A DNA stretch of 64,000 nt from Flavobacterium sp. GTDB taxonomy: Bacteria > Bacteroidota > Bacteroidia > Flavobacteriales > Flavobacteriaceae. The notes beneath the pieces were generated by a model. The model was not told the origin of the DNA. It was given only the letters and a program-made list of their open reading frames with translations, and made no database searches. Both the position numbers and the translations under genes were made by a program. This document shows positions 55,492 to 55,689 of this stretch, piece after piece. The stretch lies in the NCBI GenBank assembly GCA_040402815.1, contig JBBALV010000004.1, positions 81,797 through 145,796 of the forward strand, in the 5' to 3' direction. Each line of letters begins with the position of its first letter. The first letter of the stretch is position 1.

Positions 55492-55689
55492 CAAATCAGA
55501 AACCTAGGAAATTTCTACATACGAATGAGAATAAGCCGCGAGAGTTCACGTCCATCTGGGCGTGGGCTGTTCGTGCTTATTTTTCGTATGGGCTCTCCTA
55601 GGTGCCTTGATTTGATTGTAGGCATTTTGGACAGTTTCATGCCCTTTTTTATGCTTATTAGTTTAAGAGCAAGCTTCGCTTTTAAACTA
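55492..55689 (+). ncRNA. Putative structured leader RNA (rod hairpin, weak terminator-like hairpin, ATG-proximal hairpin)
   Basis: Nested helices 55492-98/55608-14, 55502-09/55596-603, 55518-25/55583-90, 55529-36/55575-82 and 55543-53/55558-68 with several G:U pairs. GGCAT..ATGCC + U6 at 55621-55650. 12-bp stem 55659-70/55678-89. Confidence 0.55.

Follow-up and report, generated by a model that had tools for sequence, protein, structure and literature searches.

In the attenuators of trp, his and pyr operons, and in riboswitch platforms, pairing of leader segment 1 with segment 2 and of segment 3 with segment 4, the latter pair forming a terminator, excludes the pairing of 2 with 3 that makes up the antiterminator. 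The same four-segment logic operates in plasmid replication leaders (e.g. pT181 repC, pIP501 and pAMbeta1), where attenuation is mediated by antisense RNA. Alternation between an extended, rod-like duplex and branched, local hairpins is familiar from the HIV-1 leader (LDI and BMH) and from viroids. In the Bacteroidota, dominant in the gut and in many aquatic communities, surface and DNA-modification genes are switched by DNA inversion (phase variation). We know of very few RNA-level gene controls in this phylum, which to our knowledge also lacks Shine-Dalgarno-driven initiation and Hfq. Flavobacteria possess rod-like or repeated structured RNAs, 6S-Flavo RNA (RF01685) and Flavo-1, of a length similar to that of the element described here. 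Bacteroides UpxY acts via non-template DNA together with pause hairpins, and depends on a NusG paralogue that the operon itself encodes (PMC11685472). The DonS family, as far as it is cited in PMC7366714, comprises cis-antisense RNAs transcribed antisense to susC genes.

The element that we describe here comes from Flavobacterium sp., from a stretch of 64,000 nucleotides that was analysed as a whole (‘the window’). On the plus strand, positions 55492-55614 fold as a single, unbranched rod of 48 pairs (RNAfold, -58.3 kcal/mol). Dinucleotide shuffles of the same sequence average -28.7 kcal/mol (z = -8.42), and not one of 200 folds as well; the opposite strand gives a weaker fold (-45.6 kcal/mol). 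The base of the rod is formed by helices S1-S3 and its apex by H4-H6. Forty-one of its pairs are Watson–Crick and seven are G:U, and there are no A:C oppositions. A first-pass annotation of this DNA had proposed a hairpin at this place, built of nested helices with ‘at least five’ G:U pairs and richer in G+C than its surroundings. Every one of those helices is present in the sequence, and the G+C content is 46%, compared with 27-33% in the flanks. The annotation had also set the hairpin between a promoter box, 55407-55414, and the start codon of a methyltransferase (MTase) gene at 55694, and both lie where it put them. The rod itself, then, stands; what does not is the rod as the whole element, for it is only one of two mutually exclusive folds of something longer. 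By BLASTN and by covariance model alike the rod is single-copy in its own genome, on which grounds a repeat or a MITE was rejected.

The rod is a real structure, well beyond chance, and its homologues retain pairing through compensatory changes. In an alignment of 68 distinct homologues that was fitted by covariance model, and so leans toward the modelled structure, 95.2% of the rod's pair cells hold standard pairs; sliding the partners by one to three columns in the same alignment lowers the figure to 33-46%. Both-sided changes are found in 39 of the 48 pairs. All 24 pairs of the basal helices covary, with up to four pair types, so that pairing is kept and sequence is free; S1, at the end of the rod, runs freely through all four types. 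In the apical helices the sequence itself is conserved, and the G:U pairs are fixed. Among the homologues, G:U cells number 385 and A:C cells 30, and selection therefore acts on the plus strand as a single strand. The first-pass annotation had favoured selection on RNA over a DNA palindrome, and had looked to homologues and covariation as a check; both were found, and together with the excess of G:U over A:C, the promoter upstream and the U-run downstream they bear this view out.

The main sequence set was collected by a pattern in which two conserved boxes were fixed, and loci reached through protein rather than pattern give the same picture of covariation. A covariance model built from the single sequence located the rod upstream of the methyltransferase in each contig fetched for a relative of the downstream nuclease, with basal helices rewritten by compensation; in these contigs the gene pair stands in unrelated contexts (behind GH3, FBPase or sucB genes). 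Scanning metagenome contigs with the DNA pattern, without protein information, added more than 120 further contigs. A BLASTN search across 60 relatives returned no rod homologue, which proved misleading, since the covariance model later detected the family in most of the genomes that belong to the genus.

Two side observations concern individual homologues. The proteins of one cassette, L165, are ~95% identical to those of this locus, and the basal helices of its leader are quite different (69 bits, compared with 160 bits for the identical copy in L037); the base of the leader either evolves much faster than the genes or is exchanged between cassettes. In a metagenome contig, L178, two family members, 4071-4198 on the plus strand and 8163-8286 on the minus strand, lie ~4 kb apart on opposite strands and flank a distant MTase–nuclease pair. 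The second of these is divergent (41.5 bits).

The conserved element extends over about 55470-55650, from a small 5' hairpin to a U-run, all on the plus strand. The hairpin, P0 (GAGCU-UUU-AGCUC, 55470-55482), has 92.5% of its cells paired, and divergent members keep it in the form AGC-N3-5-GCU. Four segments follow. Segment 1 (‘A’, CUUAUUCUC, 55482-55490) is the exact complement of 55527-55535, the first nine nucleotides (GAGAAUAAG) of segment 2. Segment 2 (‘B’, 55527-55553) is the rod's 5' apical arm, and its first nine nucleotides have two possible partners, segment 1 or 55575-55582. Segment 3 (‘B'’, 55558-55582), the rod's G- and U-rich 3' apical arm, is common to rod and terminator. Segment 4 (‘B2’, 55617-55644) resembles the 5' apical arm, and forms with segment 3 a stem of ~25 bp, directly 3' of which lies the U-run (TTTTTT, 55645-55650). 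Folded alone, the 5' part yields P0 and the segment 1:2 helix. The 3' half, folded alone, yields the segment 3:4 stem (-36.9 kcal/mol in this leader, with a range of -30 to -41 kcal/mol among others), which ends exactly at the U-run and thereby has the form of an intrinsic terminator.

This alternative fold is conserved as well. Across 64 sequences, 93.2% of its cells are paired, a share that drops to 43-48% with the partners slid. Over the same number of sequences, pairing in the segment 1:2 helix reaches 99.4%; folding predicts this helix for 98 of 101 leaders, and its extensions covary. The terminator helices are 94-95% paired, and include eight pairs with both-sided changes; in the upper terminator helix, 6 of 16 pairs are compensatory. 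There are 398 cases in which B and B2 are unlike, and in 300 of them B' still pairs with each of the two. Divergent members have an identical two-fold layout in different sequences, with the segment 1:2 helix written, for example, as AUCUCG/CGAGAU. Bases that appear as conserved ‘internal loops’ in the rod become, in the alternative fold, two small local hairpins with the S2 and S2' arms in their loops. The rod's many G:U pairs can be understood from this arrangement, in which segment 3 has to fit two partners that are not identical. Two folds also lead one to expect that segments with two partners will be conserved in sequence, whereas S1-S3, with one partner each, will drift; and this is exactly the pattern seen.

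Two further hairpins lie toward the genes. P3 (UAGGCAU/AUGCUUA, 55619-55657, plus strand) belongs to the minimum-energy rod state, in which its loop contains the U-run; it covaries between groups (GUAAGCA/UGCUUAC versus GCAAUCAACG/CGUGUGGUUGC). P4 (55660-55688, plus strand), which ends 6 nt before the start codon of the methyltransferase, is specific to MTase-linked leaders. It is a stem of 10-13 bp (TTTAAGAGC...GCTTTTAAA), kept in 20 of 23 distinct leaders of this kind, with compensatory variants, and across them its end lies 0-9 nt from the start codon; possibly it serves to control translation or stability of the methylase specifically. Once the U-run has been made, the rod state of this leader has an energy of -70.1 kcal/mol and the terminator state one of -59.3 kcal/mol, a gap of ~11 kcal/mol. 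At every transcript length the rod is the stabler state, and the first helix to form during synthesis is segment 1:2. Since the rod is stabler throughout, pure thermodynamics predicts constant read-through, and the terminator needs either a kinetic trap or a factor.

The position of the element is that of a leader. Upstream lies a -7 promoter box of the Bacteroidota type (TAnnTTTG, here TATATTTG, 55407-55414, plus strand), which marks the left edge of the shared cassette discussed below. An exact TAnnTTTG box occurs 71-83 nt upstream of the rod in 42 of 73 homologous leaders; in the 110-nt control stretch downstream, between U-run and gene, such a box occurs in none of the 73. The U-run is present in 66 of the 73, ~26 nt past the rod. 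Downstream genes that were clustered are, without exception, co-oriented with the leader, and start 45-110 nt past the U-run. The folds and their conservation, like the position and orientation of the element, come directly out of the computation, and they comprise what characterizes an attenuator in sequence and structure: a leader position, a stem with a U-tract, an exclusive antiterminator that shares segment 3, and conservation of both folds.

Covariation backs both folds, and we therefore read the element as a four-segment terminator/antiterminator attenuator. In this reading, to which we assign a probability of roughly 0.7, a promoter-proximal leader RNA of ~230 nt acts as a transcription attenuator and has the rod as its antiterminator fold; among the options raised in the first-pass annotation, the evidence thus favours that of a cis-regulator. 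Transcription would start a few bases past the -7 box. In one fold, segment 2 would pair with segment 3 and the basal arms, S1-S3, would zip to complete the 48-bp rod; the U-run would then be harmless in the loop of P3, and RNA polymerase would continue into the methyltransferase–nuclease operon. In the other, segment 1 would capture the start of segment 2 and free segment 3 for segment 4, and the resulting stem, abutting the U-run, would act as an intrinsic terminator and stop transcription before the genes. That termination and read-through both occur, and that the balance between them is regulated, we infer from these features.

Several related mechanisms were considered and rejected. A ribosome-mediated attenuator, dependent on a leader peptide, finds no counterpart here: an ATG between the promoter box and P0 occurs in 18 of 42 leaders (18.5 expected), the open reading frames there are 1-22 codons long, all but one stop before P0 begins, and no conserved one overlaps segment 1. 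An attenuator of the pT181 type, controlled by antisense RNA, was rejected because the opposite strand carries no conserved canonical box; in a search for the canonical box only, minus-strand TAnnTTTG matches were scattered over 18 of the 73 leaders, and none was positionally conserved. Pairing of a UGGN motif with tRNA ends, as in T-boxes, was set aside because the sequence of S2 is not conserved. A single-stranded-DNA promoter inside the rod was likewise dismissed, neither a -7 nor a -33 box being found in the conserved arms by eye.

How the choice between folds might be made can be approached from the distribution of the element. As a single genomic copy, imported with a cassette, the leader is presumed to rely on machinery that every host has (the kinetics of co-transcriptional folding, the speed or pausing of the polymerase, NusA and RNases) rather than on a dedicated partner, and a dedicated factor for the switch seems less likely. 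A more tentative proposal, which we regard as possible rather than probable, is that the leaders form a self-contained, bistable class carried on the mobile cassettes of Bacteroidota, or alternatively that the apical part of the rod binds a cellular signal or protein, which would make them a new class of regulator. In the self-contained version, the RNA would settle on rod or terminator as it is transcribed, with no ligand or protein dedicated to the task; the cassettes would be those of restriction–modification, surface proteins and SusC loci, and the choice could be stochastic or set by the speed of the polymerase.

The cassette at this locus consists of two genes. The first after the leader, 55694-56683 on the plus strand, encodes an adenine methyltransferase of the EcoRI family (Pfam PF13651, E = 3e-132). 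The second, 56680-57771 on the same strand, encodes a DUF262 (GmrSD_N)-HNH nuclease by Pfam, an unusual nuclease partner for the EcoRI methylase family, and relatives of this protein form more than 120 clusters at 78-96% identity. The two genes overlap in an ATGA, through which they are translationally coupled; as a pair they are extremely conserved, and are spread over many phyla, including plasmids of Firmicutes and Chryseobacterium. Homology with other carriers of the pair extends from 55399-55407 (the left edge being taken from L037, L165 and L181) to 57770-57771, so that the stop codon of the nuclease is the right edge. From these edges it follows that the unit that arrived consisted of promoter, leader and two genes, ~2.37 kb in all (55406-57771), and that the element would have come in with it. 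At many other loci the cassette runs on into a conserved hairpin, CCTGCAAGGTCTTTTTTTGACCTTGTAGG, that is missing here.

Upstream of the leader are fabH, accB and accC (accC at 53904-55250), followed by a terminator at 55267-55300; downstream of the nuclease come part of a T9SS C-terminal sorting domain and, in decayed copies, the 3' end of accC. These copies duplicate 55023-55251, at 58055-58112 (85% identity) and 58382-58517 (81% identity), and a variable islet separates them from the original. A 118-aa open reading frame at 57662-58018 is an artefact, the T9SS sorting-domain remnant occupying only 57775-58018, where it is cut off by the cassette. At 58206-58290 a perfect palindrome (AAAAGATGTACGGCTTTTAAT/ATTAAAAGCCGTACATCTTTT) is followed by three GCCGTACATCTTTT repeats spaced 22 bp apart, and close to the islet's left side, at 55326-55340, there is a degenerate copy of this block. 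Another genome of the genus, G023, has the block in nearly identical form, along with the accC duplication and the sorting-domain fragment; the position of the restriction pair is taken there by Kelch, LamG-CTD and PIN genes. Comparison with G023 suggests that the site behind accC is a recurrent spot of insertion or replacement, older than the cassette.

Leaders of this kind precede many sorts of genes. In the close subfamily, an EcoRI-type methyltransferase follows at 27 loci (and at 20 of them the DUF262-HNH nuclease follows in turn), an Eco57I-type methyltransferase at 18 and an N6_N4 methyltransferase at three, these being three methyltransferase families unrelated to one another; BspA-type LRR, Listeria-Bacteroides-repeat and T9SS proteins follow at ~25 loci, and small XRE-type HTH proteins at five, besides others. 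A model built from 88 sequences finds the element in 38 of 401 sampled Bacteroidota genomes, in 22 of 178 genera, with one to five copies each; 12 further genomes of the same genus are among the carriers. Model E-values that come from a short calibration are rough. Loci found in this way stand mostly before SusC-like TonB-dependent receptors, lipoproteins, a response regulator and small HTH-like proteins. Conversely, when 80 loci of related methyltransferases were inspected, eight carried the leader, the named ones all from Bacteroidota, and 72 lacked it. For plasmid copies of the gene pair in Macrococcoides, Mammaliicoccus and Chryseobacterium, the match begins only with the coding region. 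The leader thus occurs with unrelated genes and the gene pair without the leader, which marks the leader as a lineage-specific module for expression rather than a part of the restriction system. The element is probably a general gene switch of Bacteroidota accessory genes, and it would serve as a portable module joined to many genes that move horizontally.

Other explanations can be weighed against these data. The element could be a stand-alone gene for a small RNA, with its own promoter and terminator and a rod that acts in trans, the downstream genes being neighbours or reached by leak-through. A promoter box and a terminator-like stem with a U-run do bound a unit of ~230 nt, and terminated transcripts would be expected to refold into the stable rod; we nevertheless consider this unlikely, since the genes beyond the U-run, invariably co-oriented and with no promoter box of their own in between, must depend on read-through. 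The free variation of the basal helices, moreover, leaves little conserved single-stranded sequence for a trans-acting seed, and a small RNA has no need of a segment 1:2 helix, nor of a terminator that competes with its own body. Such features also weigh against a static element for processing or stability, in which the rod would be a site for RNase III, or a protective 5' structure, and would not switch. A near-perfect long RNA duplex is a plausible RNase III substrate, the predicted fold offers one of 48 bp, and the basal helices conserve pairing rather than sequence, all of which suits such a role. But it would leave unexplained why segment 4 tracks segment 3 by compensation and abuts the U-run, and why segments 1 and 2 are complementary in nearly every leader. 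As a complete account we judge a static element quite improbable; a role for RNase III, or in stability, may exist alongside attenuation.

Very improbable, in our estimation, is an element that functions as DNA, whether as a cruciform, an attC-like site, the end of a transposable cassette or a single-strand promoter. It does move with mobile cassettes whose homology begins at the promoter just upstream, G:T pairs are tolerated in folded single-stranded DNA too, and in length and shape the rod is reminiscent of the attC sites of integrons. The core sites of attC are conserved, though, and the sequence at the two ends of the rod (S1) is not. Nearly all contigs have one copy per locus, with no arrays; the cassette has no recombinase, nor is a recombinase gene found between 52 and 64 kb of the window; and neither viral contigs, scanned with the DNA pattern, nor phage records gave any match. 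An integron attC site and a phage origin were rejected on these grounds. The fixed distance to the promoter, the U-run, the strict co-orientation and the terminator alternative are, furthermore, features of transcription. There remains the proposal that the RNA belongs to the restriction system, as an antitoxin-like RNA, a cofactor of the DUF262-HNH protein or an autoregulatory site of the MTase; the first two were raised in the first-pass annotation, which had tied the hairpin to the MTase–nuclease operon and predicted defence genes downstream of its homologues. At this locus the element does lie directly upstream of the gene pair, and it travels with the pair in several contexts. Its distribution largely refutes the idea, to which we give hardly any credence. 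The tie fails at nine-tenths of the related-MTase loci and on the plasmids; surface proteins, SusC-like receptors and HTH genes follow the leader as well as defence genes, and most leaders found without a protein reference precede genes of unrelated function; co-occurrence with the nuclease is not obligatory; and the only MTase-specific part is P4, a separate hairpin before the ATG.

The family appears to be new, and its logic is not. A search of Rfam 15 over 55455-55660 at E <= 10 gave nothing but two overlaps at chance level (E = 1.8 and 4.9); no match to the element was found over the whole window at the gathering score, nor over 20 homologous loci at E <= 0.1. Known Rfam families, T-box, riboswitches, 6S-Flavo and Flavo-1 among them, were accordingly rejected as identities for the element on the strength of this cmscan search; the first-pass annotation, too, had matched it to no known family. 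A literature search brought up no described equivalent. Palindromic candidates from Bacteroidetes that are listed in PMC8040213, HMP2_4205 and HMP2_1032 for example, may overlap with this family. The logic of attenuation, in sum, is already known, and the family is absent from Rfam 15 and from the literature searched. A divergent 6S RNA was also rejected as an identity, because the genome has a 6S-Flavo candidate of its own on another contig (contig 22, 22488-22594; L031). This candidate scores 82.4 bits (E = 2.4e-14), just below the Rfam gathering score of 85, and would be overlooked in a standard annotation that applies this threshold.

What is unusual about the element is the length of its antiterminator, the near-complete pairing of both states, and its association with mobile accessory genes. 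It is present in roughly a tenth of the sampled genomes of the phylum, and the genes to which it is linked otherwise share only their accessory nature and their roles at the surface or in DNA modification. If it is an attenuator, it offers a directly testable handle on the safe expression of acquired cassettes, those of restriction–modification included, in new hosts; a portable regulatory part for use in the genetics of Bacteroidota; and a model of how an RNA chooses, while it is being transcribed, between a long terminator and an antiterminator that is very long. If the more tentative, self-contained switch also proves correct, the leaders would allow costly accessory genes to be expressed heterogeneously or according to growth state, and would form an RNA-level counterpart to phase variation by DNA inversion.

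Set beside the systems with which we began, the element is distinct from 6S-Flavo RNA and Flavo-1, neither of which it matches even at E = 10. With the UpxY/ops capsule leaders and the DonS RNAs it has in common a form of control specific to Bacteroidota, in the long leaders of operons for surface structures or SusC; but this locus has no NusG paralogue, and, as far as the DonS RNAs are described in the source that cites them, the element differs in lying on the sense strand, with no conserved antisense promoter. Leaders of the pT181 type are likewise four-segmented and located on mobile DNA, and the S2 and S2' loops resemble kissing-loop targets; here the opposite strand lacks a conserved box, and the ‘antisense’ partner is the rod's own 3' arm, in the same transcript. 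The alternation of rod and hairpins, with nearly all bases paired either way, recalls the HIV-1 leader and the viroids, from which the element differs in sequence, host and output: its branched state forms a bacterial intrinsic terminator. In its logic the element agrees with the classical attenuators and riboswitches, whose exclusion of a 2:3 antiterminator by 1:2 and 3:4 pairing it shares, without a leader peptide, a recognizable ligand pocket or an Rfam aptamer. Compared with those attenuators, its antiterminator is lengthened by ~24 extra base pairs into a 48-bp rod, and its targets are not a metabolic pathway but mobile accessory genes.
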